Assembly (NCBI GenBank): GCA_964447765.1
Contig: CAYUTO010000001.1
Span: forward strand, 28,110 to 92,109
DNA length: 64,000 bases
Direction: 5' to 3'
DNA from: an uncultured Gammaproteobacteria bacterium
Lineage (GTDB): Bacteria; Patescibacteriota; Patescibacteriia; Magasanikbacterales; UBA922
Positions within the stretch are counted from its first letter, which is position 1. Each line of letters begins with the position of its first letter. Below are positions 10,130 through 56,753 of the stretch, in pieces. A program made the position numbers and the translations under genes. The notes beneath the pieces were generated by a model. That model had not been told where the DNA came from. It was given only the letters and a program-made list of their open reading frames with translations, and did not search any database.

Positions 10130-10367
10130 ATAGAAAAAAGATTTAAAATTAAAGATTGAAGACTAAATATACCTGCTTTTAAAGCAGTTTTTTAAGTATG
10201 CTGATCTTCAGTCTTCAATCTTTAGTTGTAATTTTTATACTATACAAGTACGCCTTTGTTACGTCAAATGGTTAAATTGAAATAAATTCTTATCCACAAT
10301 TGTATCAATATAAAGCTCATGGTATACTTTGCCCCAAGCTTTTATTATTCATTAATCTGAAGATTTT

Positions 10368-11144
10368 ATGCCTGAAGAGAAAAGCATATTTGATGCGCTT
10401 TCACCTAAACAAATGTTTGTTACCGGACTCGTTGGGGGGATCATGGTGCTGTGTACTATTGGTTTTTTTGTAGTACTAAGTATCATGCTTGGTGATGGTG
10501 TTTCTACGAAGACTCCTCGAACACCAGGCACGGTCGTGACTGATGCAAGTGGTAATGTAGAAGGGCCAGAAGAATTTAGTCAGTGTCTTGATTCTGGAAA
10601 AACAGCGAGTGCTGTTTCTGCTGATCTTCAGCTCGGAAGTTCAATCGGGGTGAATGGAACTCCTGCAACTTTTGTAAATGGAGTATTGGTAAGTGGGGCA
10701 TTTCCATACGACTCATTGAAACAGGTGATCGATGCGACACTTGCAGGTCAATCAGTTGATAATCTTGAATTTTTGAAAGACCAAGAAACTGGAAAAGTAA
10801 TAAAAGTGACTATACCTGAATTGCCAGGTGCAGTATGGCTTGGAAATGAGAATGCAAAAGTCACTGTGGTAGAGTTTTCTGATTTTGAATGTCCATATTG
10901 TCTCAGATTTGAACCTGCAGTCAAACAGATGCTTACTGAATACGGAGACAAGATTAGATTTACCTACCGACATTTCCCATTATCATTCCATCCAAATGCA
11001 CAAAAAGCTGCAGAAGCATTTGAATGTGCTAAAGAACAAGGAATGGCGTGGGAGATGCACGAGAAACTGTTTGGGCTTCAGTCATCAGGACAACTTGGAA
11101 TTAATGGCTACAAGCGCGTAGCAACAGAACTCGGACTTGATTAA
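10368..11144 (+). CDS. Membrane-anchored DsbA-like thiol:disulfide oxidoreductase, apparently circularly permuted
   Basis: N-terminal TM helix. Residues ~60-130 match the C-terminal part of a DsbA/BdbD domain (EEFSQCLDSGK...GVNGTPATFVNG). The C-terminal half matches the N-terminal part, including the CPYC active site, and ends ...ATELGLD. Confidence 0.6.
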   Translation: MPEEKSIFDALSPKQMFVTGLVGGIMVLCTIGFFVVLSIMLGDGVSTKTPRTPGTVVTDASGNVEGPEEFSQCLDSGKTASAVSADLQLGSSIGVNGTPATFVNGVLVSGAFPYDSLKQVIDATLAGQSVDNLEFLKDQETGKVIKVTIPELPGAVWLGNENAKVTVVEFSDFECPYCLRFEPAVKQMLTEYGDKIRFTYRHFPLSFHPNAQKAAEAFECAKEQGMAWEMHEKLFGLQSSGQLGINGYKRVATELGLD

Positions 11145-11386
11145 GCAGGTTTACACGAATAACCCTTCGAAAACTCTCAAGATCAATCTCGTACAAATTT
11201 ACGAGTAGGGTATTAATTACTTTCGGGATCCCAGGTGTACCTGCATACCTAAAAAGTACGCAGACTGAAAAAAGTTCACCGCAAAACTGCCGGGCCAAAC
11301 ACGGCGGTTTTTGTTTTAAATACTGATTGAACTTAGGGATTACATGGATAATTTAGTTAAAATAAGTCAAATATTACCTTAAATGG

Positions 11387-11440
11387 TTGACAAATTACCC
11401 ACGCCATGCTAAACTTTTTTATCACTAATTTTAGTGATAA
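11387..11440 (+). promoter_or_regulatory. Consensus sigma-70 promoter (TTGACA-17 nt-TAAACT) followed by a perfect 10-2-10 palindrome TTATCACTAA-tt-TTAGTGATAA (operator-like) upstream of cassette C
   Basis: Read directly from the sequence; the palindrome spans 11419-11440, about 25 bp before the GTG start. Confidence 0.5.
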
Positions 11441-11466
11441 TGCGTTTCTTAGGGTAGGAGGAGAAC

Positions 11467-11931
11467 GTGGATACTTTTGATGTTACGGTAAATTACGACC
11501 TTCCGTTCAAGGAGGCAATCTCGGTCGGGAAGTATGATTGGGTGGATCAGAACATTACCTTAAAGAACTTCGCCTGGACTACTGGTTGGACTGCTAAATT
11601 CAAACTCTACCTCGTCAGCTTCGGTTATCCTGTAACGACTGCAAAGATCGAGGAATTGAGCGCTGAATTTCGTCTGGCTGCGCTTCCTGAACTTCTCGCC
11701 TTCGGAGCACAGTTCCCAGACAGGCAACGCGAGTTCGCGATCGTCGCTCTCGGTTCGCCTTGGGCTGTTCCTAATGGCAGTCATCGTGTCACATGTCTCT
11801 ATGGGGACACGGCTGTAAGGAATCTTGGTCTTTACTGGGATGCTCCCGAAAATAAGTGGGAAGGGTGCTGTAAGTTCCTGATGCTACGTAAGTGGGAGTA
11901 CTCTGCACAAAAAGCTTTACAAAGAAGGTGA
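11467..11931 (+). CDS. Hypothetical protein, GC-rich cassette C
   Basis: GTG start after TAGGAGGAG; 154 aa; about 50% GC. A GC-rich hairpin terminator lies at about 11943-11990. Confidence 0.5.
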   Translation: MDTFDVTVNYDLPFKEAISVGKYDWVDQNITLKNFAWTTGWTAKFKLYLVSFGYPVTTAKIEELSAEFRLAALPELLAFGAQFPDRQREFAIVALGSPWAVPNGSHRVTCLYGDTAVRNLGLYWDAPENKWEGCCKFLMLRKWEYSAQKALQRR

Positions 11932-12030
11932 GCGGCCAATCGAGTGCCCTGTACTAGTTCTATAGTGCAGGGCCTTTCTTTTTATTGAAAATTAGCTATA
12001 CTTGAATGGATACAATATTTATATATTTTT

Positions 12031-18754: not shown

Positions 18755-18784
18755 AAAAAACCTCCCAGATGGGAGGTTTTTTAG
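18755..18784. terminator. Bidirectional terminator AAAACCTCCC-agat-GGGAGGTTTT
   Basis: Perfect 10-bp stem flanked by A/T runs. Confidence 0.7.
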
Positions 18785-19476
18785 AATATTTCGAAATGAA
18801 TATTTTTTGCGTCAGTTCCTCGAGTAGTGAGCATTTCTCGAACTGTTTTTACCATATCAGCATTTCCGCAGAGAAATGCATGGAGATGTGAAGTGTTTGT
18901 AGGTAGGTGTTCGGTCACGCGTCCTCGACTTCCAGTCCACGAGTCTTCGGGGCGTGAAATAGTGGTCGAGTAGCTAAAGTTTGTATGTTTTTTTTGTAGT
19001 TCTTCCAATCGGTCTGCCCAGAAAATATCTTTTTCGTATCGAACTCCAAAAATAAGGTGTAATTTGTTTTTATTATTTTTACTCTCCAGTTCATCTTGGA
19101 TCATTCCCATGATTGGAGCTAATCCTACGCCTGTGGCTATAAAACAGAGATCGCTGTTGCTAGTGTTTACGACAAACCTTCCTGCTGGTCCGCGGAATGA
19201 AATTGTGTCACCTGGGTTTGAAATTTGAAAAAGTTTGGAAGCAATACCGGTATCATAGAGTTTCACGCATAGTTCTAGATACTCGTCTTTTGGAACAGAG
19301 GAAATGGAATATGAACGAAATACTTGTTTTTCACCCTGTGGCGCAATAATTTGGATAAATTGACCAGCCTGAAAATCAAAGTTTTTTGGCTTATTTAAGC
19401 GAATTTGAAGCACATCTTCGGTTAGATATTTCTTTTCTATTAGATTGCTTTGGAATTCATTCATAACGATTGACAA
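18781..19476 (-). CDS. FAD/NAD(P)-binding oxidoreductase, ferredoxin-NADP reductase family
   Basis: FAD-binding RSYSIS motif, GxGxxP-type NAD motif (ATGVGLAP) and C-terminal FLCG. Confidence 0.7.
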   Translation of the reverse strand: MSIVMNEFQSNLIEKKYLTEDVLQIRLNKPKNFDFQAGQFIQIIAPQGEKQVFRSYSISSVPKDEYLELCVKLYDTGIASKLFQISNPGDTISFRGPAGRFVVNTSNSDLCFIATGVGLAPIMGMIQDELESKNNKNKLHLIFGVRYEKDIFWADRLEELQKKHTNFSYSTTISRPEDSWTGSRGRVTEHLPTNTSHLHAFLCGNADMVKTVREMLTTRGTDAKNIHFEIF

Positions 19477-19531: not shown

Positions 19532-19927
19532 ATGCTTTCGATTAGTAAACAAACTGACTATGCGGTGGAGCTCATCTTGGCGCTTTCAAAGTTGAAAGAA
19601 AGTGAACTTTTGAGTCTACGCGTCTTTTCTAAACAAAGTACCATATCATTCTTGTTTTTACAACGGATTGCCAAGTCTTTGCGTGAGGCGAGACTGATTG
19701 AAGCTGTTCGTGGAATTAATGGGGGATATCGACTATTGAAACCTGCATCAACTATTTCGTTTCGAGAAGTGATTGAGGCAGTGCAAGGACCATTTTCCGT
19801 ACTTGCATGTACCAAGAGAGAAAAGTGTGAGCTTGAGGCTATGTGCACGGCAAAGCATGGACTTCGATCTGTCGAGACTGAAATTGCGGAGCTTCTTGGT
19901 TCACGATTTGTGGTATCTCAAAATTAA
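19532..19927 (+). CDS. iscR: Rrf2-family transcriptional regulator (IscR-like)
   Basis: Rrf2 HTH at the N-terminus and three clustered Cys residues (CTKREKCELEAMC). Confidence 0.75.
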   Translation: MLSISKQTDYAVELILALSKLKESELLSLRVFSKQSTISFLFLQRIAKSLREARLIEAVRGINGGYRLLKPASTISFREVIEAVQGPFSVLACTKREKCELEAMCTAKHGLRSVETEIAELLGSRFVVSQN

Positions 19928-19928
19928 T

Positions 19929-21113
19929 ATGATGAAAAAGAAGAATCCAATCTATCTTGACTACGCTGCAGCTACTCCGGTTGATCCTCGTGTATTTGAA
20001 GTGATGAAGCCTTATTTTACTGATTCATTTACGAATCCTTCTTCACTGTACGCATCTTCCACAAAATTGTCAGAAACATATATTCAATGCAAGAAACAGG
20101 TCGCTGATTTTTTTCATACCACACCGGACAACATTACGTATGTAAGTGGGGGAAGCGAGTCTATTACCAGTGCGATTATGGGAATTGCACGTGCGCATGT
20201 GTTGCAGGGGAGACATATTATTACGACTACTATTGAGCATAGTGCTGTGCTCGAACCACTTCGTGCGCTTGAACGATATGGATTTGAAATTACCTATGTA
20301 CCTGTTGACGAACATGGTTTTGTTTCGGTTAAAGACGTTCTCAAAGCAATTCGAAAAGATACCATTCTTATTTCTATCATGCATGCTAATAATGAAATTG
20401 GTTCGATTCAGCCGATTGAAGAAATTGGGCGAGAAATTTTGAAATATAGAAAAAAAGAAAAAACTATTTTTCCTTTATTCCACGTAGACGCATGTCAAAG
20501 TATTCTCTATCTTGAGCGTTCAGTTGAAAAACTCCACGTAGACGCATTGTCATGTAACGGTGGAAAAATATACGGACCAAAATCTTCTGGAATTTTGTAT
20601 GTTCGACGAGGAATACAATTTGATCCAACGATTCTTGGTGGAGGACAGCAGGGCGGAAGACGTAGCGGAACAATCGATATGGCTATGGTTGTTGGTATCA
20701 CTGAAGCTATTAAGTTGATTCCTAAAAATTCAGAACATGAAAAAATTAAGTTGCTTCGTGACCGATTGTGGAATGGTATTAAGGTAAATATTTCTGATGT
20801 TATCTTAAATGGTCCTGACGTAAGTGATGAAAAACGATTACCAAATAATCTTAATGTTTCATTTATTGGAGCCCCTGGTGAAGCACTTGTGTTGTATCTC
20901 GATGCACAAGGAATTTGCGTCAGCACCGGATCTGCTTGTGCTGAGGATTCTCGATCAGGATCGCATGTACTTGAAGCTTGCGGGTATGAAGTATCTCGAA
21001 AAAATACTGCTATTCGGTTTACTCTTGGGAAAGATACTACTGAGGGGGAGATCAATCATGTGCTTGAGATTTTGCCTGATATTGTAGAGAAAGTTCGAAA
21101 TATGAACGCATAA
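19929..21113 (+). CDS. Cysteine desulfurase, class I (NifS/IscS-like)
   Basis: PLP-fold class V motifs, active-site STGSAC; start ATG 1 nt after the iscR stop. The ORF-track start at 19773 is an in-frame upstream extension. Confidence 0.8.
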   Translation: MMKKKNPIYLDYAAATPVDPRVFEVMKPYFTDSFTNPSSLYASSTKLSETYIQCKKQVADFFHTTPDNITYVSGGSESITSAIMGIARAHVLQGRHIITTTIEHSAVLEPLRALERYGFEITYVPVDEHGFVSVKDVLKAIRKDTILISIMHANNEIGSIQPIEEIGREILKYRKKEKTIFPLFHVDACQSILYLERSVEKLHVDALSCNGGKIYGPKSSGILYVRRGIQFDPTILGGGQQGGRRSGTIDMAMVVGITEAIKLIPKNSEHEKIKLLRDRLWNGIKVNISDVILNGPDVSDEKRLPNNLNVSFIGAPGEALVLYLDAQGICVSTGSACAEDSRSGSHVLEACGYEVSRKNTAIRFTLGKDTTEGEINHVLEILPDIVEKVRNMNA

Positions 21114-21117
21114 AACT

Positions 21118-22527
21118 ATGAGTAATAAACTTCAACCACATTTCACGATTGATCGAACTCTCTACGACGGGGCTAATGTTGATACCTCGAAATTTAAGAC
21201 GGCACCAGGATTGACTGAGCATATTGTTCGAGAAATTTCAGAGCAGAAGAGTGAACCGAGTTGGATGCTTGAGAAACGACTCAAGGCTTTTGAATATTTC
21301 AAACATACAAACCTTCCTACCTGGGGACCAGATTTGTCTGGTCTTAATTTGAACGAGATTATTTATTTTGCGCGTCCAAACACTGGTGAGTCAACCAGTT
21401 GGGATACGGTTCCTGATGATATCAAGAAAACATTTGAAAAATTGGGAATTCCTGAAGCTGAGAGAACTCAACTTGGTGGTGCTGGAGCACAGTATGATAG
21501 TGATGTCGTGTATCATAAAATCAAAGATGATCTGAAAGCTAAGGGAGTGGTATTTGAAAATATGGATGTGGCAGTACAGCAATACCCTGATTTGGTAAAG
21601 GAATATTTCATGACCCAGTGTATTCCCATTAATGATCATAAATTTATCATGTTGCATGCTGCGGTATGGTCTGGGGGTACGTTTATTTATGTTCCAAAAA
21701 ATGTAAAAGTGGATTTGCCTTTGCAAGCATATTTTAGAATGAACGCAGAAAAGGGTGGGCAATTTGAGCACACCCTCATCATTGTCGATGAAGGAGCAGA
21801 ACTTCATTATATCGAAGGATGTTCGGCTCCTCGGTATAATGCTAGTTCGCTACATGCGGGAGGAGTCGAAATTTTTGTAAAAAAAGGTGGACGATGTCGG
21901 TATTCGTCAATTGAGAATTGGTCAAAAAATACGTACAACCTTAATACTAAACGAGCACTGGTGGATGAAGATGCGGTGATTGAATGGGTAAATGGAAACA
22001 TGGGATCAGGAACAACGATGTTGTATCCTTCCTCAGTCCTTCGTGGACGAGGTGCGAGATCAGATAGTTTGGGAGTTGCATTTGCTGGACCTGGTCAGAA
22101 TCAGGATACGGGAGCCAAAGCGATTCATGTAGCTCCTGATACGAAGTCAACGATCAAGGCAAAATCTATTTCAGTAAACGGTGGAATTACGACGTATCGT
22201 GGACTCGTAAAAGTTGCAAAGAGTGCAGAGCGATCAAAAGTGTCAGTTGAGTGTGATGCACTTCTCATTGGGGACGATGCGATATCAAACACTTATCCGT
22301 ACATGAAAATAAATAATAGTACGACTGATATTGCACATGAAGCTCGGGTTGGGAAAATAGGGGATGATGAGATTTTTTATTTACAATCACGAGGACTATC
22401 AGAAGAAGCTGCAATGAATCTGGTAGTTTCAGGATTTATTGAACCAGTTATAAAATCACTTCCACTCGAATATGCACTTGAGCTGAATAAACTGATTGAG
22501 CTTGAGATGGAAGGCAGTGTAGGGTAA
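21118..22527 (+). CDS. sufB: Fe-S cluster assembly protein SufB
   Basis: 469 aa; conserved C-terminal FYLQSRGL motif and the SufB beta-helix region. Confidence 0.85.
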   Translation: MSNKLQPHFTIDRTLYDGANVDTSKFKTAPGLTEHIVREISEQKSEPSWMLEKRLKAFEYFKHTNLPTWGPDLSGLNLNEIIYFARPNTGESTSWDTVPDDIKKTFEKLGIPEAERTQLGGAGAQYDSDVVYHKIKDDLKAKGVVFENMDVAVQQYPDLVKEYFMTQCIPINDHKFIMLHAAVWSGGTFIYVPKNVKVDLPLQAYFRMNAEKGGQFEHTLIIVDEGAELHYIEGCSAPRYNASSLHAGGVEIFVKKGGRCRYSSIENWSKNTYNLNTKRALVDEDAVIEWVNGNMGSGTTMLYPSSVLRGRGARSDSLGVAFAGPGQNQDTGAKAIHVAPDTKSTIKAKSISVNGGITTYRGLVKVAKSAERSKVSVECDALLIGDDAISNTYPYMKINNSTTDIAHEARVGKIGDDEIFYLQSRGLSEEAAMNLVVSGFIEPVIKSLPLEYALELNKLIELEMEGSVG

Positions 22528-22623
22528 TAACTATATGTAACAATTTTTAAAATTAAGAAGCGCTGCGCCAGAGTCGTCGATCCCGAATGGGAGACTTGTC
22601 TGGTGCAGCGCGCATGGGTAGGG

Positions 22624-22902
22624 TCATGAGTCGTTCAGGCCGAGCTCCTTGGTCTTACTGACTCGGTTTATGAACTCGACATCTGAAGCTGGCTTTCGTG
22701 TAACTCGGGCGCAGACGTCGGCTTCAGGCTCACCATAGTATGGTTTTCCGACGATCGTGACCGTGTACACGTCTTTGTCTTCCTTGTTGAAGGAGTTGTG
22801 ATGTAGAACACCACCGAGATTCACGATGTGTTGGTTAAGTGCCGCAACAGCCGATTCTTCGTTCTTGAAGCCTTCGAACGTGATGAGTAGTTTGAACGAC
22901 AT
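22624..22902 (-). CDS. Hypothetical small protein, GC-rich cassette D, inserted between sufB and sufD on the opposite strand
   Basis: 92 aa. Own promoter TTGACT-16 nt-TAGTAT plus AAGGAGAA RBS, and a minus-strand terminator hairpin CGCTGCGCCAGA...TCTGGTGCAGCG at 22560-22615. Confidence 0.5.
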   Translation of the reverse strand: MSFKLLITFEGFKNEESAVAALNQHIVNLGGVLHHNSFNKEDKDVYTVTIVGKPYYGEPEADVCARVTRKPASDVEFINRVSKTKELGLNDS

Positions 22903-22972
22903 GCTATTCTCCTTCGGGCGGTGAAGGTGCCCGATATATCAGATACTAACATTATTTATACAAAAGTCAATT

Positions 22973-24028
22973 ATGAAATCAACTCCCTATACAATTCACT
23001 ATGGTATAGGAATGCTCATGAACTTTGAGCCGCTTCTTTATGATACGCTCAAATTTCAAGTAGGTGCGAGTATGGTCTCGCTTTCCGATTCTGAAGAGGG
23101 GAATAAAAATGTAGTTCAATCAATTTTACAAAATAATGAAAAGCTTTCTTCGGTTGTTAATAATCATCTTACTTTTTTTCCACTATTCAACTTGGTGCAC
23201 ACACAACCAACTGATGAATTTTATTTTACGATTAAAAATACTAATAACTTGACTACGCACAAACTTTTCTTAGATATACAAAATTCTTCTCGAACGCATG
23301 TGGTGATTACTGTGGAAGATGGAGCGAAAGTGACTATTGTAGAATCAATGGTTGGAAATTCATATGTGGGATATGCACTCGATATTGTAGTTGGAAAAGG
23401 GGCTGAGGTTACGTTTGTTGCACATCCGGAAAATATGAGTATGAGAACCGTACTTCGAAATGCATATGTGCAAGAAAATTCTTTGATTAAGTGGTTGGAA
23501 GGAGTTATTGAGGGACAATTGATCCAATCACATATCCGAACCTATTTATATGAACCAGGGAGTCGTGCTGAAGTAAAGGGAATATTCGCACTTTCAGGAA
23601 CTACCGTTGTAGACATGTATCACTCAATGTATCACCTCGCATCTCATACTACGTCTGACATGCTTACCAAAGGAGTTTTGCAAGGTAAGTCACGTGCTAT
23701 GTATCAGGGACTTATTCATATTGATGAGAAGGCTATCGGGTGTACGGGGTATCAGAAACAAGATAGTTTGGTATTATCGGATAGTGCGGAAGTAAATGCG
23801 GTACCAAACCTTGAAATTGAGAATAGTGATGTAAAATGTTCGCATGGAGTAACGACTGCACATATTGATGGTGAAAAATTATTCTATGCGCAGAGTAGGG
23901 GAATTAATGAGAAGGATGCAGCGCAATTATTTGTAGATGGTCATCTCTCTCCTTGTATTGATGTAATTCCAGATGAAACTATGCGAATTGGATTGCAGGA
24001 AAGAATTCATCGAAATCTAGTTGTCTAA
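22973..24028 (+). CDS. sufD: Fe-S cluster assembly protein SufD
   Basis: 351 aa; shares the C-terminal motif (LFYAQSRGI) with SufB. Confidence 0.8.
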   Translation: MKSTPYTIHYGIGMLMNFEPLLYDTLKFQVGASMVSLSDSEEGNKNVVQSILQNNEKLSSVVNNHLTFFPLFNLVHTQPTDEFYFTIKNTNNLTTHKLFLDIQNSSRTHVVITVEDGAKVTIVESMVGNSYVGYALDIVVGKGAEVTFVAHPENMSMRTVLRNAYVQENSLIKWLEGVIEGQLIQSHIRTYLYEPGSRAEVKGIFALSGTTVVDMYHSMYHLASHTTSDMLTKGVLQGKSRAMYQGLIHIDEKAIGCTGYQKQDSLVLSDSAEVNAVPNLEIENSDVKCSHGVTTAHIDGEKLFYAQSRGINEKDAAQLFVDGHLSPCIDVIPDETMRIGLQERIHRNLVV

Positions 24029-25232
24029 TATGAATAAAGATCTACGATCACCATTTAGTATCCTCAAAAACCGTCCTGAATACACGTATCTTGATAGTGC
24101 AGCTAGTGCGCTTACTCCGGATAGTGTTGTCGTAGCTATGAGTGAATATTACGAGCAGTATCGGGCTAATATTCATCGTGGTGTATATGCTGATAGCGAG
24201 AAAGCGAGTGCAGTATATGAACAGGTGAGAGAGCGGGTGGCGAAGTTTTTTGGTGCAGACAAAAATGAAATATTTTTTACGTCTGGCACGACTGATGGGA
24301 TTAATAAACTAGCGTATGGACTTGAGCATTTGATTACCAAAGGCGATGTAATTCTATTAACTGAGCTTGAACATCATGCGAATTTGATTCCATGGCAGCA
24401 ACTCGCTACTAGAACTGGAGCGACTCTTCGTTTTATTTCAGTAAACAAAGAAACATTTGAACTTGATTCTGATTTGGAAAAATATTTTGATTATAAAGTA
24501 AAGATTGTGAGTGTTACGCATGTTTCAAATACGCTTGGCACTGTTTTGCCAATTGAAAAGATCGTCAGACTTGCTCATGAGGTTGGGGCGCTTGTTATTT
24601 TTGATGCGGCACAGTCTGTTGCACATATGCAGATTGATGTGAAAAAAAATGATTGTGATTTTCTGGTTTGTTCTGGTCATAAAATGTATGGCCCAACTGG
24701 AGTTGGGATTGTATATGGTAAGACTGCTATATTGGGAAAGCTTAGCCCTGCAAGTTTTGGGGGAGACATGATTGATAGTGTGACGTATGAGGGAAGTGTC
24801 TGGGCGGAAATTCCCCGTAGGTTTGAAGCGGGTACGCCGAATATTGCAGGTGTGATTGGTCTCGGTGTTGCAGTATCTTTTATTCAAAATATTGGATTTG
24901 ATGTAATTGTTGCACATGAGAAAAATATAACCAAGAAATTGGTTGAAGCAGTGTCTGCACATGGAACATTGGTTGGTACGCATAATCTTGATTATAGAAC
25001 TGGTGTAGTATCATTTGCGATTGAGGGGATACACCCACATGATATTGCAGGGTTTTTGAATGAGAAGAATATTGCGATTCGTGCTGGTCATCATTGCGCG
25101 ATGCCACTTGTAAACAAACTAGGTCTGCCGCAGGGGACTGCACGTGCAAGTGTCGGAATATACACCACTGAAGAAGATGTTGATCGATTGGATAAAGCTT
25201 TGGGTCAACTTGTAAAAGCATTTAAGAAATAA
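24021..25232 (+). CDS. sufS: Cysteine desulfurase SufS (class II)
   Basis: HHANLIPWQ and RAGHHCA motifs typical of SufS/CsdA. Confidence 0.85.
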   Translation: MSNMNKDLRSPFSILKNRPEYTYLDSAASALTPDSVVVAMSEYYEQYRANIHRGVYADSEKASAVYEQVRERVAKFFGADKNEIFFTSGTTDGINKLAYGLEHLITKGDVILLTELEHHANLIPWQQLATRTGATLRFISVNKETFELDSDLEKYFDYKVKIVSVTHVSNTLGTVLPIEKIVRLAHEVGALVIFDAAQSVAHMQIDVKKNDCDFLVCSGHKMYGPTGVGIVYGKTAILGKLSPASFGGDMIDSVTYEGSVWAEIPRRFEAGTPNIAGVIGLGVAVSFIQNIGFDVIVAHEKNITKKLVEAVSAHGTLVGTHNLDYRTGVVSFAIEGIHPHDIAGFLNEKNIAIRAGHHCAMPLVNKLGLPQGTARASVGIYTTEEDVDRLDKALGQLVKAFKK

Positions 25233-25235
25233 GAT

Positions 25236-25607
25236 ATGGATCACGGAATGGATACAATTTATCGAGAATATATTCTGGATCTTTATCGCAATCCGAAGAA
25301 TAAAAAAAAGATTGAGGATGCTACTAATACGGTAAGCAAGAATAATCCGACCTGTGGAGATCAGATAACGATATATATGAAAGTCGAAAATGGAAAAATC
25401 GTTGAGGTGGGGTTTGAAGGAACAGGGTGTGCAATATCCCAAGCATCTGCGTCACTGTTTACCGAGCATATTAAAAATAAAGATATTAATGAGGTAAAAC
25501 AAATGAAAGATACGGATGTGCTTGGATTGCTTGGGATCGATGTGGGGATTAATCGAGAAAAATGTGCGTTACTTGTCTTCAGAGCATCTCAAGAATCACT
25601 TATATAA
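25236..25607 (+). CDS. sufU: SUF scaffold protein SufU/IscU-like
   Basis: NifU-like N-terminal domain with conserved Cys (NPTCGD, GTGCAIS). Confidence 0.75.
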   Translation: MDHGMDTIYREYILDLYRNPKNKKKIEDATNTVSKNNPTCGDQITIYMKVENGKIVEVGFEGTGCAISQASASLFTEHIKNKDINEVKQMKDTDVLGLLGIDVGINREKCALLVFRASQESLI

Positions 25608-27409: not shown

Positions 27410-30046
27410 TTACCCAATCTTCAGTCCTTCTTTTGACACATCAATGGTTACAGTATCACCCTCACCGACACTTTTCTCAATAATTTTCATTGCAAGTTTA
27501 TCGAGGAGTTCGGTCTGGATGACACGCTTGAGAGGGCGTGCTCCCAGGTTTTCATCATATCCTTTTTTGGCAAGCCAATCTTTGGCTTTGTCTGATACGG
27601 CGAGTTTGATTTTTTGTTTTTCCAGACGCTTCATTACATGCTCTAGTTGTAAATCTACAATTGAGCGAATTTGGTCTTCTTTGAGCGGGTGGAAGACAAT
27701 GATTTCGTCGATACGGTTCAAGAACTCTGGTTTGAATTGTTCGCGAAGTGCATCAAAGATTCGTTTGTTTATTTCTTCTTGCGACTGTTTATGAGCATTC
27801 GCTCCTTTTCCTTTTTCTCCAAATCCGAATTCTCCACGCTTGCCCATCTGCACAATAAGGTCACTCGCAATATTACTCGTCATGATGATGACGGTGTTTT
27901 TGAAGTTTACTTTTCGACCTTTGGCATCAGTCAGGTGTCCATCTTCTAATATCTGAAGCATGATATTGAAAATATCTGGATGCGCTTTTTCTATTTCATC
28001 GAATAGAATGACAGAGTATGGTTTTTTTCTTACAATCTCAGTGAGCTGTCCGCCTTCATCAAAGCCGATATATCCTGGAGGACTACCAATCATTTTACTA
28101 ATCGCGTGTTTCTCCATATACTCGGTCATGTCGACGCGGACGAGTGCATCTCGATCGTTAAATAGGAATTCAGCCAGTGTTTTTGCGAGTTCAGTTTTTC
28201 CGACCCCTGTTGGACCCATGAAGATAAATGATCCAATCGGGCGCTTCTCTTCTGATATTCCAGCGCGGTTTCTGCGGATTGCATTTGCGACAGCTCCGAT
28301 CGCTTCAACTTGTCCTACCACCTGTTTGCCTAGTTCAGCCTCCATTTTTGCAAGCTTGTATACTTCGTCTTCGAGCATTTTGTTTACGGGAATTCCGGTC
28401 CATTTTGACACTACTCGAGCGATGTCTTCCTCGGTCACTTCTTCTTTCAAGATTGAACTTTTCTTTTGTAGATCTGCAAGCTTGGCTTCATATTTCTTGA
28501 TCGCTTCTTCAATAACTGGAATTTTTCCATATCGAATTTCAGCAACTTTTTGTAAGTCGCCTTTACGTTCCATGATTTCAGCTTCTTGTTTTAATTTATC
28601 AATTTCTTTTTTATGCTCACGCATTTTGGTAATGATTTCTTTTTCATTGCCCCATTGCATCTCGATTTCTTTACTCTTTTCTTTGAGGTTTGCTAATTCT
28701 TCTTTGAGTAGTTTTTCACGTTCTTTGGAATCAGTATCGGTCTCTTTTTTGAGTGCACGAAGTTCAATGTCTATTTTCATTATTTTTCGTTTCATTTTGT
28801 CGAGGTCATCAGGCATGGAATCAATCTGCATTTTGAGCGCACTTGCGGCCTCATCTATCAGATCAATTGCTTTGTCTGGGAGAAATCGATCGGTAATGTA
28901 TCGGTCAGAAAAATTAACTGACGCTACAATAGCAGGATCGGTGATTCGTACCCCATGATGGATTTCATATTTTTCTTTGATACCACGTAAGATTGCGGTG
29001 GCATCATCAAGCGATGGTTCGTGTACCATGACGGTTTGGAATCTGCGCTCAAATGCTGCATCTTTTTCGATATGTTTCTGATGTTCTTTAATCGTGGTTG
29101 CACCAATAATATGGAGTTCACCTCGAGCAAGCCCAGGTTTCAGCATGTTTGACGCATCAACTGCGCCTTCTGAGCTTCCCGCACCAATGATTGTATGAAG
29201 CTCATCAATAAAGAGTACTATTTGACCGTTACTATTCGTAACTTCTTTTATTACTGCCTTAAAGCGTTCTTCAAATTCTCCTCGGAACTTGGTTCCCGCA
29301 AGGAGGGATCCGATATCAAGAGAAATTACTTCTTTGTCTTTGAGGTTTTCTGGTACATCACCATTTACGATACGCTGAGCAAGTCCTTCGACAACAGCAG
29401 TTTTTCCAACCCCTGGTTCACCAATGAGTACGGGGTTATTCTTTGTACGACGAGTGAGTACTTGCATGACGCGGCGAATCTCATCATCACGACCGATAAC
29501 TGGATCAAGTTTTTCTTTTCTGGCACGGTCGGTAAGATTCATCCCGTATTTTTCGAGTGCTTGATATTTACTTTCTGGTTCAGGTGAGTCTACTCGTTGG
29601 TTACCGCGAATTGATTGGAGGACCTTCAAGACTTCGTGGTAATTTGCGCCTTCCTGACTTAGAAAATCACTAATAGGATTTTTGCCCGTAAGAAATGCCA
29701 AAAGTAGGTGTTCTACGCTGATAAATTCATCCTTCATCTTCTGAGCTTCGTTGTTTGCATTCTGAAGAACAAAGAGTGTCGCTTGTGAGAGGGTGACTTG
29801 CCCCATACCATGTGCGCCGATTGGTTGTTTTGGTAGGTGATTGATGAGCGCTTGCGTATTACTCTTTATTTCTTCTACACGGGCGTTTAGTTTTTTGAAT
29901 ATAGAAACAACGACTCCCTCGTCCTCATTAATCAAAGCTAAGAATAGATGTGGGGGATCGATCTGCTGTTGTCCATTTTCATGGGCAATAGTTTGTGCGT
30001 TTTGAATAGCTTCTTGAGATTTGTTGGTAAAGTTTTGGGGCATCAT
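27410..30046 (-). CDS. clpB: ATP-dependent chaperone ClpB
   Basis: 878 aa; Clp N-domain, two AAA+ modules ([16 protein letters not shown]) and a middle coiled-coil. Confidence 0.95.
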
Positions 30047-34476: not shown

Positions 34477-35010
34477 ATGAAAAATGATAAGCAAATTATA
34501 TTTTTTGATACTGAATTCACCTATCTCGACGCACGAAAAGGTGAGCTTTTGTCTTTGGGTTTGGTAAAAGAAACTGGTGAGGAATTATATATTGAATTGG
34601 AACAACCACCGCTCGAAAAAATGGATCCATGGGTAGTGGAACATGTATTACCTTCTCTGTCTGGAAAAGAGGTATTATCAAAAGAAGCTGCTCGAGAAAA
34701 AATTAGAGAATTTGTAGGTACTGAAAAGCCTTATCTCTTGGCATATGTAAATCAATTTGATGCGGTCTTTTGGTACGATCTTTTTTCTGATCCGCAAAAA
34801 CATCCCGCATTCTGGATACCTATTGATTTTGCTTCAATTCTGTTTGCTCATGGATTTGATCCTGGTAGTATGGGTAAACAAGAGTTCTTTGATCGCATTG
34901 GTGTTACCAAGACTGATTACGAGACTCGTGGTCACAATGCATTAGAAGATGCACAACTCTTGAAAGAAGTATATTATAAATTTCTTTCGTACATCGGACA
35001 TAAAAATTAG
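34477..35010 (+). CDS. DEDDh 3'-5' exonuclease (DnaQ-like)
   Basis: Exo I FFDTEFT and Exo III GHNALEDA motifs. Confidence 0.7.
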   Translation: MKNDKQIIFFDTEFTYLDARKGELLSLGLVKETGEELYIELEQPPLEKMDPWVVEHVLPSLSGKEVLSKEAAREKIREFVGTEKPYLLAYVNQFDAVFWYDLFSDPQKHPAFWIPIDFASILFAHGFDPGSMGKQEFFDRIGVTKTDYETRGHNALEDAQLLKEVYYKFLSYIGHKN

Positions 35011-51907: not shown

Positions 51908-52459
51908 TTAGGAATATTTAATTTTCTCTCTTGTAAACATATTACCTATTTTAATAAATACTGCATAGAGCGGGATAGAAATAAGTGCTGTACACAGCAT
52001 TTCCATACCAAATTGTTTTATGAGCCCGGTTGAAAATAAAAAACCATTTTCGAGTATCATACCGGAAAATAACACCCCTGCACTGTAGAGCACTCTAAAT
52101 ACAAACATACCAAACAAAGTAAGAATGCCTGCTATCCAGATTGAAAGATTGGTAAAAACACTCTCAAAAAACCAATATATTCCAAGGATCGTGAATACTC
52201 CTGCAAAAAGCTCGATTCCAAATTGTTGTGAAGTGAACATATCCTCTATTAGGTATACACCAAACGCAAACCACACCACTCCACCTCTGGCTCCACGCAT
52301 AATCGCGATGACAAAAAAAAGCATCAAGATGTCTATATACATGAATACATTTGGCAACAGATTGTTCAACATCAGTTTTGAAAATGCAAGACCAAGAATT
52401 CCTGTAGTATACAATACTGCCGGAATTACTTTTTTAAGTATTTTATTACTCGGTAACAT
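51908..52459 (-). CDS. mreD: Rod shape-determining protein MreD (putative)
   Basis: 183-aa polytopic membrane protein in the canonical position between mreC and pbp2. Confidence 0.5.
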   Translation of the reverse strand: MLPSNKILKKVIPAVLYTTGILGLAFSKLMLNNLLPNVFMYIDILMLFFVIAIMRGARGGVVWFAFGVYLIEDMFTSQQFGIELFAGVFTILGIYWFFESVFTNLSIWIAGILTLFGMFVFRVLYSAGVLFSGMILENGFLFSTGLIKQFGMEMLCTALISIPLYAVFIKIGNMFTREKIKYS

Positions 52460-55565: not shown

Positions 55566-55970
55566 TTAGTGTTGGGTGAGATGTTTTTTGGTAAAATTGG
55601 TAAGTGACAGGTCAAAGGATACGATTACGATACAAATGGTACCGAATACAAGTGTGTTGAATAGGCTAAGAACTGAAAGTGACTGTAGGTAGAGTCCGAC
55701 AAGCGCCAGTACACTCAAGACGACGGCAGTTCTAAAGCTCATGCGTACATGTCGAAATAGCGGCATTTCCTGTCCACCGAAGAGTCGGTAAATGCCGAAA
55801 ACAACCAGCGAAATAGTACCAATAAGTGCGAATAATAGACTAATATAAAAAAAGACAAAGCCTATAGTGCCTGTCTCAAATGGATCGATATTAATAATAA
55901 CAAAAATCCATGCTGCCCAGCAGAGTATCGTCGAAAAAATCATGGTTGCGAGGTATTGTCGTAGGTTCAT
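55566..55970 (-). CDS. Hypothetical 4-TM membrane protein
   Basis: 134 aa with four hydrophobic segments. Confidence 0.4.
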   Translation of the reverse strand: MNLRQYLATMIFSTILCWAAWIFVIINIDPFETGTIGFVFFYISLLFALIGTISLVVFGIYRLFGGQEMPLFRHVRMSFRTAVVLSVLALVGLYLQSLSVLSLFNTLVFGTICIVIVSFDLSLTNFTKKHLTQH

Positions 55971-56063: not shown

Positions 56064-56753
56064 TTAGTTTATATAATAGTAGATGAGAGCAAGGATTGCG
56101 AGGTGTATTGGGTAGTAGAGGTAGAAAAGGTGTTTAAATGAGCGTCCCCTATCTCCTTGATACAGTGAAATCGGTATTAAGGCTAGGATTGAAAATAGTT
56201 GTTGCGTTCCTCTATAGACGATTTGCCCATTCTCTGGGGCTGGTGCTAATAGCGTGTAAAGAAATACATATCCCAGAGTCGCGATTGTATAGAGTACGAT
56301 TCTTTTTGAGGTATTTTCAAATGTTGTGTGAAAAATAAGTACGAGCGCAACTCCATACCATCCATAACTCACATCAATTATTGTTGCGAAGCAGATAAGT
56401 GCAACTAGTGCTGCGTTGCGAATAAATTTGTTTTTTATTTTTTCGTAAACAATAATTGCAGAGAGTCCTAAGAGAAGGGTAAATAAAATATTTAATTCAT
56501 ATGGTGATCGCCCAATCTGTATAAATGCCCATGCGTAAGGAATTTGTGAAATAATTCCAACTATCGCCAGTCGTGTACCGTATTTTCTAATATTTTTTGA
56601 TTTTCTATACCCATTTGCGACTCCCCATGCAAATATAGGAAACGCAATTCTACCTACCGCTGTCATCCAGTCGGTATCAGGAAAGAAAAAACGACCGATG
56701 TGATCGACCGTCATGGTTATCAGTGCAATAATTTTTAAAGCAAAAAGCGTCAT
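56064..56753 (-). CDS. TraX-family membrane protein (conjugative-pilin acetylase-like)
   Basis: N-terminus LKIIALITMTVDHIG matches the TraX signature; polytopic membrane protein. Confidence 0.5.
   Translation of the reverse strand: MTLFALKIIALITMTVDHIGRFFFPDTDWMTAVGRIAFPIFAWGVANGYRKSKNIRKYGTRLAIVGIISQIPYAWAFIQIGRSPYELNILFTLLLGLSAIIVYEKIKNKFIRNAALVALICFATIIDVSYGWYGVALVLIFHTTFENTSKRIVLYTIATLGYVFLYTLLAPAPENGQIVYRGTQQLFSILALIPISLYQGDRGRSFKHLFYLYYPIHLAILALIYYYIN

Follow-up and report, generated by a model that had tools for sequence, protein, structure and literature searches.

A probable natural circular permutant of a membrane-anchored BdbD/DsbA-type thiol:disulfide oxidoreductase, likely derived from tandem DsbA proteins

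Circularly permuted forms of the thiol:disulfide oxidoreductase DsbA have been made in the laboratory. Permutants of the Escherichia coli enzyme were engineered in a random-permutation study (Hennecke, Sebbel and Glockshuber, 1999), as cited in PMC13552848 and PMC3281007, and one engineered, soluble permutant, cpDsbA_Q100T99, cut between T99 and Q100, is represented by crystal structure 1UN2. BdbD of Bacillus subtilis (3EU3) and 3GYK have the canonical N-to-C order, and BdbD is also N-terminally membrane-anchored (PMC2749146). Other proteins carry several DsbA domains in tandem; such arrays occur in bacteria of the Candidate Phyla Radiation (CPR), in Myxococcota and in others (for example P0060, P0079, P0117 and MCK6509235.1). 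Here we describe a gene at positions 10368 to 11144 of a 64,000-nucleotide stretch of DNA (the window; positions 28,110 to 92,109 of contig CAYUTO010000001.1, assembly GCA_964447765.1). The 258-residue protein that it encodes is very probably a thiol:disulfide oxidoreductase of the BdbD/DsbA type that has been circularly permuted in nature, with the predicted fold, the membrane anchor and the proposed tandem origin set out below.

The window protein is about 19-20% identical to 1UN2 and differs from it in being natural and membrane-anchored, in belonging to the BdbD/Thioredoxin_4 subfamily, and in being cut one helix later. Its closest solved relatives by sequence are BdbD and 3GYK, which share with it the CPxC motif and the Thr-Pro pair of the predicted cis-Pro loop; unlike the window protein, however, they have the canonical order and lack the Cys73/Cys220 pair described below, and structural aligners cover only about 95-115 of their residues. 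The tandem and array proteins are 40-47% identical to it and colinear with it through a C-half, a linker and an N-half, and they share the motifs FPLSFH, AQKAAEA.EC and F..CLDSG; whereas they consist of complete canonical domains in two to six copies, the window protein keeps the inner C-N portion only. We found no literature on natural permutation of DsbA or on DsbA in the CPR, only the engineered permutants, in a search that did not cover most subscription journals, so that a prior description is possible. The permuted sequences themselves are already public, annotated only as 'thioredoxin domain-containing' or 'DsbA-like'.

The gene is an open reading frame (ORF) on the forward strand, with an ATG start, 258 amino acid codons and a TAA stop. 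Its product begins with a membrane anchor, which is followed by the C-terminal third of a DsbA/Thioredoxin_4 domain (with the GTP motif), a linker, and the N-terminal two thirds of the domain (with the CPYC motif). The features are the following, with model and alignment data as given further below:

10368..11144 (+), complete permuted DsbA-like gene; called as an ORF, with the exact protein in a public collection
10416..10487 (+), N-terminal transmembrane (TM) anchor, residues 17-40; helix 13-42 in the AlphaFold2 model, conservation 0.72
10452..10454 (+), codon of Cys29, inside the membrane helix and invariant in the alignment of 103 members
10488..10559 (+), variable tether between anchor and domain, residues 41-64; conservation 0.26, the lowest in the protein, and model confidence (predicted local distance difference test, pLDDT) below 50 at residues 43-47
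10560..10751 (+), C-half, residues 65-128, holding the cis-Pro loop and beta4-beta5 between the last insertion helices and the final helix; corresponds to 3gyk 118-170 and BdbD 131-194
10584..10586 (+), codon of Cys73, which is predicted to pair with Cys220 in a disulfide; invariant, one of two paired Cys columns
10656..10664 (+), G97-T98-P99, putative cis-proline loop motif; invariant in 103 homologues and upstream of the CxxC motif in all members of the family (type A, below)
10752..10823 (+), linker from the ancestral C-terminus to the ancestral N-terminus, residues 129-152; conservation 0.52, confidently modelled
10824..11141 (+), N-half, residues 153-258, with beta1-beta2, beta3 after the CPYC helix, and insertion helices one to three; corresponds to 3gyk 12-113 and BdbD 15-109
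10890..10901 (+), C175-P-Y-C178, redox-active motif at the N-terminus of helix 176-195; both Cys invariant
11025..11027 (+), codon of Cys220, which is predicted to pair with Cys73 in a disulfide; invariant, the other paired Cys column
11142..11144 (+), TAA stop, giving a new C-terminus right after ..ELGLD; type A homologues end alike, with ..ELGL[KD]

The swapped order of the two segments was recovered with several references. In Pfam, the 258-residue protein matched Thioredoxin_4 (PF13462) with 95.3 bits (cut-off 23.2) and DSBA (PF01323) with 67.6 bits (cut-off 25.6), each match falling into two stretches. In a phmmer search against PDB sequences, residues 153-258 aligned with 3gyk 12-113 and residues 71-123 with 3gyk 118-170, and for BdbD (3eu3) the corresponding pairs were 149-239 with 15-109 and 65-128 with 131-194. 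The alignment with StScsC (4GXZ) showed the same swapped order. These matches confirm what an earlier note on this DNA had read from the letters, namely that within one ORF the segment that normally ends a DsbA domain comes first and the segment with CPYC comes last; the matches do not overlap and their order is swapped. The last residue of the protein (..LGLD) corresponds to 3gyk 113 and its first DsbA segment begins at 3gyk 118, so that the C-terminus abuts the protein's own first DsbA-like segment in the reference, the signature of a circular permutation.

To de-permute the protein in silico, residues 129-258 were joined to residues 65-128. The resulting sequence gave a single colinear match to Thioredoxin_4, covering positions 4-165 of 165 with 102.4 bits, and it aligned in one uninterrupted stretch both with 3gyk 12-170 and with BdbD 15-193. 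For 3gyk the E-value went from 1e-16 to 9e-21 on de-permutation, and the E-values of these matches as a whole, 1e-16 to 1e-29, lie far past chance. The same note had also proposed that the joined ends (..LGLD followed by ..EEFSQCLDSGK..) read as a canonical DsbA sequence, which is what the colinear match bears out. The canonical order, with the N-half before the C-half, is thus absent from the 258-residue protein and is restored only by de-permutation. On sequence grounds, the protein is a DsbA/Thioredoxin_4 homologue with an altered topology and not a canonical member of the family.

The gene is not confined to one assembly. The exact 258-residue protein, with the same neighbours, lies on contigs from two independent assemblies (SRR12712864 and SRR12712865), and its sequence is also present on an NCBI contig. 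We took as its homologue set the best 120 clusters of a search (50-100% identity, about 245-275 residues) and assigned the order of the halves with half-domain hidden Markov models; the C-half preceded the N-half in 111 clusters, which we call type A, and the other 9 were tandem N-C-N-C proteins. In all 111, the GTP loop comes before CPYC and the chain stops at the same end residue, ..ELGL[KD]. Source names, where given, are Candidatus Magasanikbacteria, Parcubacteria or Patescibacteria. Among GTDB species representatives, full-length permuted genes were present in four metagenome-assembled genomes (MAGs) of Magasanikbacteria, in one of Falkowbacteria (42% identity) and in one labelled Gammaproteobacteria. 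Both redox cysteines (C175 and C178), G97-T98-P99, C73 and C220 are invariant in the 103 members that were aligned. Moreover, the ratio of nonsynonymous to synonymous substitution rates (dN/dS) against relatives at 95, 89 and 83% identity was 0.10, 0.06 and 0.07 overall, and it was low in the TM helix, in both halves and in the linker alike. The gene is under purifying selection.

No extra half-copy was found upstream or downstream when both halves and a canonical C-half were searched by tblastn against the whole window (E up to 50). Two candidates for such a leftover were rejected. A different reading frame gives the peptide 'FGIPGVPAYL' at about 11225-11255, which resembles a cis-Pro loop, but tblastn was silent at 11145-11466 and at 10130-10367, and we take it to be a chance likeness. 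A weak match of the N-half at 34633-34746 (E 0.021) lies in an ORF for an RNase_T exonuclease that has no cysteines, and is likewise attributed to chance.

The protein has a single N-terminal hydrophobic helix, preceded by Lys5 and Lys14. The conservation of this anchor (0.72) is close to that of the catalytic halves (0.74-0.75); conservation reaches 90% or more at 9 of the 24 positions, and G20, C29, G32 and F33 are invariant. A mere tether is not usually so well conserved, which suggests that the helix makes a specific contact with another helix or that Cys29, within the membrane, has a role of its own. A role of Cys29 as the cysteine of a lipoprotein was rejected: it is preceded by Leu, so that there is no lipobox, and the helix runs on through it.

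A structure was predicted with AlphaFold2 from an alignment of 103 sequences (pLDDT 91.9, predicted template modelling score 0.78); a single-sequence model, with a pLDDT of 43.9, was unusable and was discarded. In the model, a TM helix at residues 13-42 is followed by a tether of low confidence at about 43-47. The C-half comprises helices 68-76 and 80-92, a strand at 100-103, directly after G97-T98-P99, and helix 114-125, and it leads into a well-ordered linker. The N-half comprises strand 165-171, helix 176-195 starting from CPYC, strand 196-202, and helices 211-222, 227-239 and 245-254. The helical insertion that lies between beta3 and the last beta-beta-alpha unit is present, made up of the last three of these helices together with helices 68-76 and 80-92, and it is within this insertion that the chain is cut.

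When the model was compared with solved structures, the top PDB match in both structure searches was 1UN2, with 149-182 positions aligned. In the Foldseek search against the PDB it scored E 2e-5 over 182/186 columns, whereas canonical DsbA-like structures were aligned over about 95-114 columns in alignments of low root-mean-square deviation. A sequential aligner can cover more than about 115 residues only if the connectivity is likewise permuted, which independently supports the assembly of both halves into one domain. The structure prediction that had been suggested as a check of the permutation thus gave one DsbA-like domain, whose best solved match is itself an engineered circular permutant of DsbA. 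The two halves are therefore predicted to pack, within one chain, into a single DsbA-like domain with the fold of the unpermuted relatives.

To locate the cut, a profile of de-permuted and canonical relatives was aligned to an E. coli DsbA sequence that was checked at C30, C33 and P151 only, which makes the E. coli positions approximate. On this approximate scale, the termini of type A proteins correspond to K118/G119, between alpha4 and alpha5 of the helical insertion. Two further cysteines, Cys220 (..EAFECAKEQ..) and Cys73 (..EFSQCLDSG..), map to two columns of the profile. Cysteine occupies both columns in 138 of 584 related DsbA domains, neither column in 444, and a single one in 2, these counts not being phylogenetically independent. 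Presence or absence of cysteine jointly at both columns is a pattern typical of a disulfide pair, and Cys73-Cys220 is probably a structural disulfide between the helix that directly follows the tether and the C-terminal part of the chain.

Next, we considered how the permuted order could have come about. Residues 70-258 are colinear with residues 202-388 of the 450-residue tandem DsbA-DsbA protein P0060 (46% identity, 6 gaps), a segment that runs from the C-half of the first domain through the inter-domain linker into the N-half of the second; the linkers differ in length by 3 residues. Since tandem relatives are colinear across the junction, duplication followed by truncation is the likely origin of the permutation. 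In the model that we propose, an ancestor of the form TM-N1-C1-N2-C2 (N and C standing for the two half-domains) would have lost N1 with the frame preserved, and a stop codon would have removed C2. The most likely source is thus a TM-anchored tandem DsbA-DsbA protein minus its first N-half and its second C-half. Tandem duplication with terminal deletions had been raised in the earlier note as an alternative to a circular permutation; it stands as the likely route, but not as a rival, being a way in which a permutation arises.

A profile search of 1.8 billion representatives clustered at 50% identity gave a survey of such tandem arrays. Arrays of two DsbA copies were found in 13 representatives, of three copies in 99, of four copies in 19 and of five to six copies in 3, and most representatives were NCNC to NCNCNCNCNCNC arrays. 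Possible half-truncated forms were also present, namely 6 NCNCN, 1 NNCNCN and 1 CNCNC representatives, for which the gene calls may be incomplete. The N-terminal anchor motif, ..PK.MF..G...G.., resembles by eye the anchors of canonical single-domain CPR DsbAs in L009, L011 and L013. The representatives of this search, proteins P0121-P0267, include such multi-DsbA arrays as P0121, with 974 residues, and P0124, with 1196, and one named array protein, MCK6509235.1 (1423 residues), comes from Myxococcota.

A second permuted family, type B, is represented by two proteins encoded at L008:5746-6570 (+) and L056:5755-6558 (+), which are TM-anchored, DsbA-like, and C-then-N by Pfam. Like type A, they consist of a TM anchor, a C-part, a linker and an N-part with CPYC; unlike type A, they have a different TM helix, without cysteine. 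The break in type B lies one helix before that of type A, so that the helix ..LKKYAKELGLN stands in front and the chain ends with ..HDKIF..EA.GQAQ. In a search with the L008 protein, 118 of the best 120 clusters (63-99% identity) had the C-then-N order, and the named sources were Roizmanbacteria, Levybacteria and Microgenomates (e.g. KKP62812.1 and UniRef100_A0A0G0E648). On the approximate E. coli scale, the type B break falls at about T99-S104, in the same alpha3-alpha4 loop in which 1UN2 was cut.

In a neighbour-joining analysis of the de-permuted domains, type B was monophyletic in 200/200 bootstraps and a clade uniting types A and B appeared in 0/200. The distance between A and B was 0.93, larger than the 0.64-0.79 that separates each type from the canonical or tandem relatives nearest to it. 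This simple distance analysis tentatively points to separate origins of types A and B, for which the different breakpoints are a stronger argument than the distance trees. A broader scenario, which we regard as speculative and rather unlikely, would be that the permutation arose at least twice independently in CPR bacteria, once in Magasanikbacteria/Falkowbacteria and once in Microgenomates, placing the chain ends in neighbouring insertion loops each time, and that it was selected for shifting the attachment of the tether from beta1 onto the helical domain. Such a move could re-orient the catalytic face relative to the membrane and to a partner, possibly docked on the unusually conserved, Cys-bearing TM helix. 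If that were true, the natural breakpoints would mark the same permissive sites as random permutation in the laboratory.

The working model for the protein is the following. In a Magasanikbacteria-like (CPR/Patescibacteria) cell, the N-terminal helix would anchor the enzyme at the outer face of the cytoplasmic membrane, which makes an extracytoplasmic location of the catalytic domain our inference. The chain would make the last third of the DsbA fold first, that is, two insertion helices, the Thr-cisPro loop, beta4-beta5 and the final helix, and then, after a 24-residue linker, the first two thirds, in which beta1-beta2 lead to helix 1, with CPYC at its start, and beta3 and three insertion helices come after. 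Intramolecular packing of the two parts would keep the geometry of the active site. As to the direction of the reaction, we lean towards an oxidase, that is, a disulfide-forming enzyme. The DsbA oxidase of Staphylococcus aureus, which is not known to depend on DsbB, has the same motif pair, CPYC with Thr-cisPro.

Some observations weigh against this picture. Among the representatives surveyed we found no true intermediate, such as TM-C-N-C or TM-N-C-N with confirmed complete ends; the single-domain structure is a prediction; the 64-kb window contains no DsbB, VKOR or other re-oxidising partner; and among the solved proteins nearest in sequence, those of the ScsC type stand beside oxidases, with similar scores. 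The last two points bear on whether the enzyme, folded as described, is instead a reductase or isomerase of the ScsC, ResA or DsbC kind, acting for example in copper tolerance or cytochrome maturation. ScsC copper-sensitivity suppressors (4gxz, 6nen and 4xvw) are indeed among the solved relatives, the C-half also matches DsbC, and neither DsbB nor VKOR is nearby, but the best family matches are the BdbD-type Thioredoxin_4 and DSBA profiles, the motif pair is that of the S. aureus oxidase as well, and a CcdA/DsbD-type supplier of reductant is also missing from the neighbourhood. A search of multi-TM ORFs with CxxC, together with Pfam searches of ten small or membrane ORFs, gave no DsbB, VKOR, CcdA or MauE-like gene in the window, and there was none beside the homologues. 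We consider the reductase or isomerase direction rather improbable, and the oxidase the better choice. Much less probable still is that the halves do not pair within one chain but form a domain-swapped dimer or oligomer, perhaps driven by the conserved Gly/Cys TM helix. That helix, with invariant G20, C29 and G32, is as conserved as the catalytic domain, a hint of helix-helix contact, and some DsbA-like proteins, namely ScsC and DsbC/G, are oligomeric; however, in the AlphaFold2 monomer the fold is completed within one chain at high confidence, the model matches the monomeric cpDsbA over 149-182 positions, and the 24-residue linker is long enough, being of nearly the same length as the inter-domain linkers of the tandem relatives.

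Whether the gene is a real and working one also had to be weighed. It could be an assembly artefact, with two tandem dsbA genes collapsed or mis-joined, and the existence of tandem DsbA-DsbA genes in related organisms makes such a collapse conceivable. This explanation is already effectively refuted: the identical protein and its neighbours were assembled separately from two Sequence Read Archive runs, the 111 clusters, from many samples and assemblers, keep the same order and the same first and last residues at identities as low as about 50%, selection on the gene is purifying, and the window holds no second half-copy. Nearly as implausible is that a tandem DsbA gene is decaying here into a non-functional leftover. 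A tandem gene that had been deleted in part would have this architecture, but dN/dS stays at 0.06-0.10 in every region, the CxxC motif, the cis-Pro loop and the Cys73/Cys220 pair do not vary among 103 sequences, the model of a single domain has high confidence, and the family covers at least Magasanikbacteria and Falkowbacteria.

Natural permutations that combine clear homology, a conserved family, living tandem relatives and an engineered crystal counterpart are rare, and this case offers a clean test of the permutation-by-duplication model. It also makes the DsbA cut sites of evolution and of the laboratory directly comparable, with the cut of type A next to that of 1UN2 and the cut of type B within its loop. 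Because these proteins carry generic names, give two partial profile matches and are covered structurally over half a domain, architecture surveys of oxidative folding in the CPR will misdescribe permuted DsbAs. The gene raises the question of how CPR cells, with their minimal genomes and their dependence on the envelope, form disulfides, and with which partner.

Around the gene, the slot from the permuted dsbA to a translin-family gene (11145-12030) differs in content between close relatives. The window and L002 have a 154-codon GTG-start ORF there, without a Pfam match (11467-11931 (+) in the window), which is uncalled in L001; the equivalent slot holds a NUDIX gene in L091 and L092 and nothing in L090. 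In the window, L083 and L090-L092, the translin-family gene (PF01997; 12031-12612 (+) in the window) follows the permuted dsbA at a distance of 1-4 kb. A divergent neighbour encoding an Fe/Mn superoxide dismutase was considered as a functional link and dropped: the pairing is seen only at about 61% identity or above (L087 and L090-L092), and it is absent in L083 and in the species representatives L003-L007 and L049.

Further away, an iron-sulfur cluster assembly block occupies 19532-25607 (+), with an Rrf2 regulator, a class V aminotransferase (cysteine desulfurase-like), a SufB/D-type protein and a NifU_N scaffold; it is adjoined by a gene on the other strand (18781-19476) for an FAD/NAD-binding oxidoreductase. 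At 56064-56753 (-) lies a gene for a membrane protein of the TraX family (PF05857, E 1e-44), and the small multi-TM ORFs near it (55566-55970 and 51908-52459) have no Pfam match. The membrane ORFs of this region lack CxxC, so that none of them looks DsbB- or VKOR-like. Finally, the MAGs L003, L008 and L056 are labelled as uncultured Gammaproteobacteria bacterium, and the named relatives of their permuted proteins all belong to the CPR (Magasanikbacteria or Microgenomates), from which these labels look wrong.
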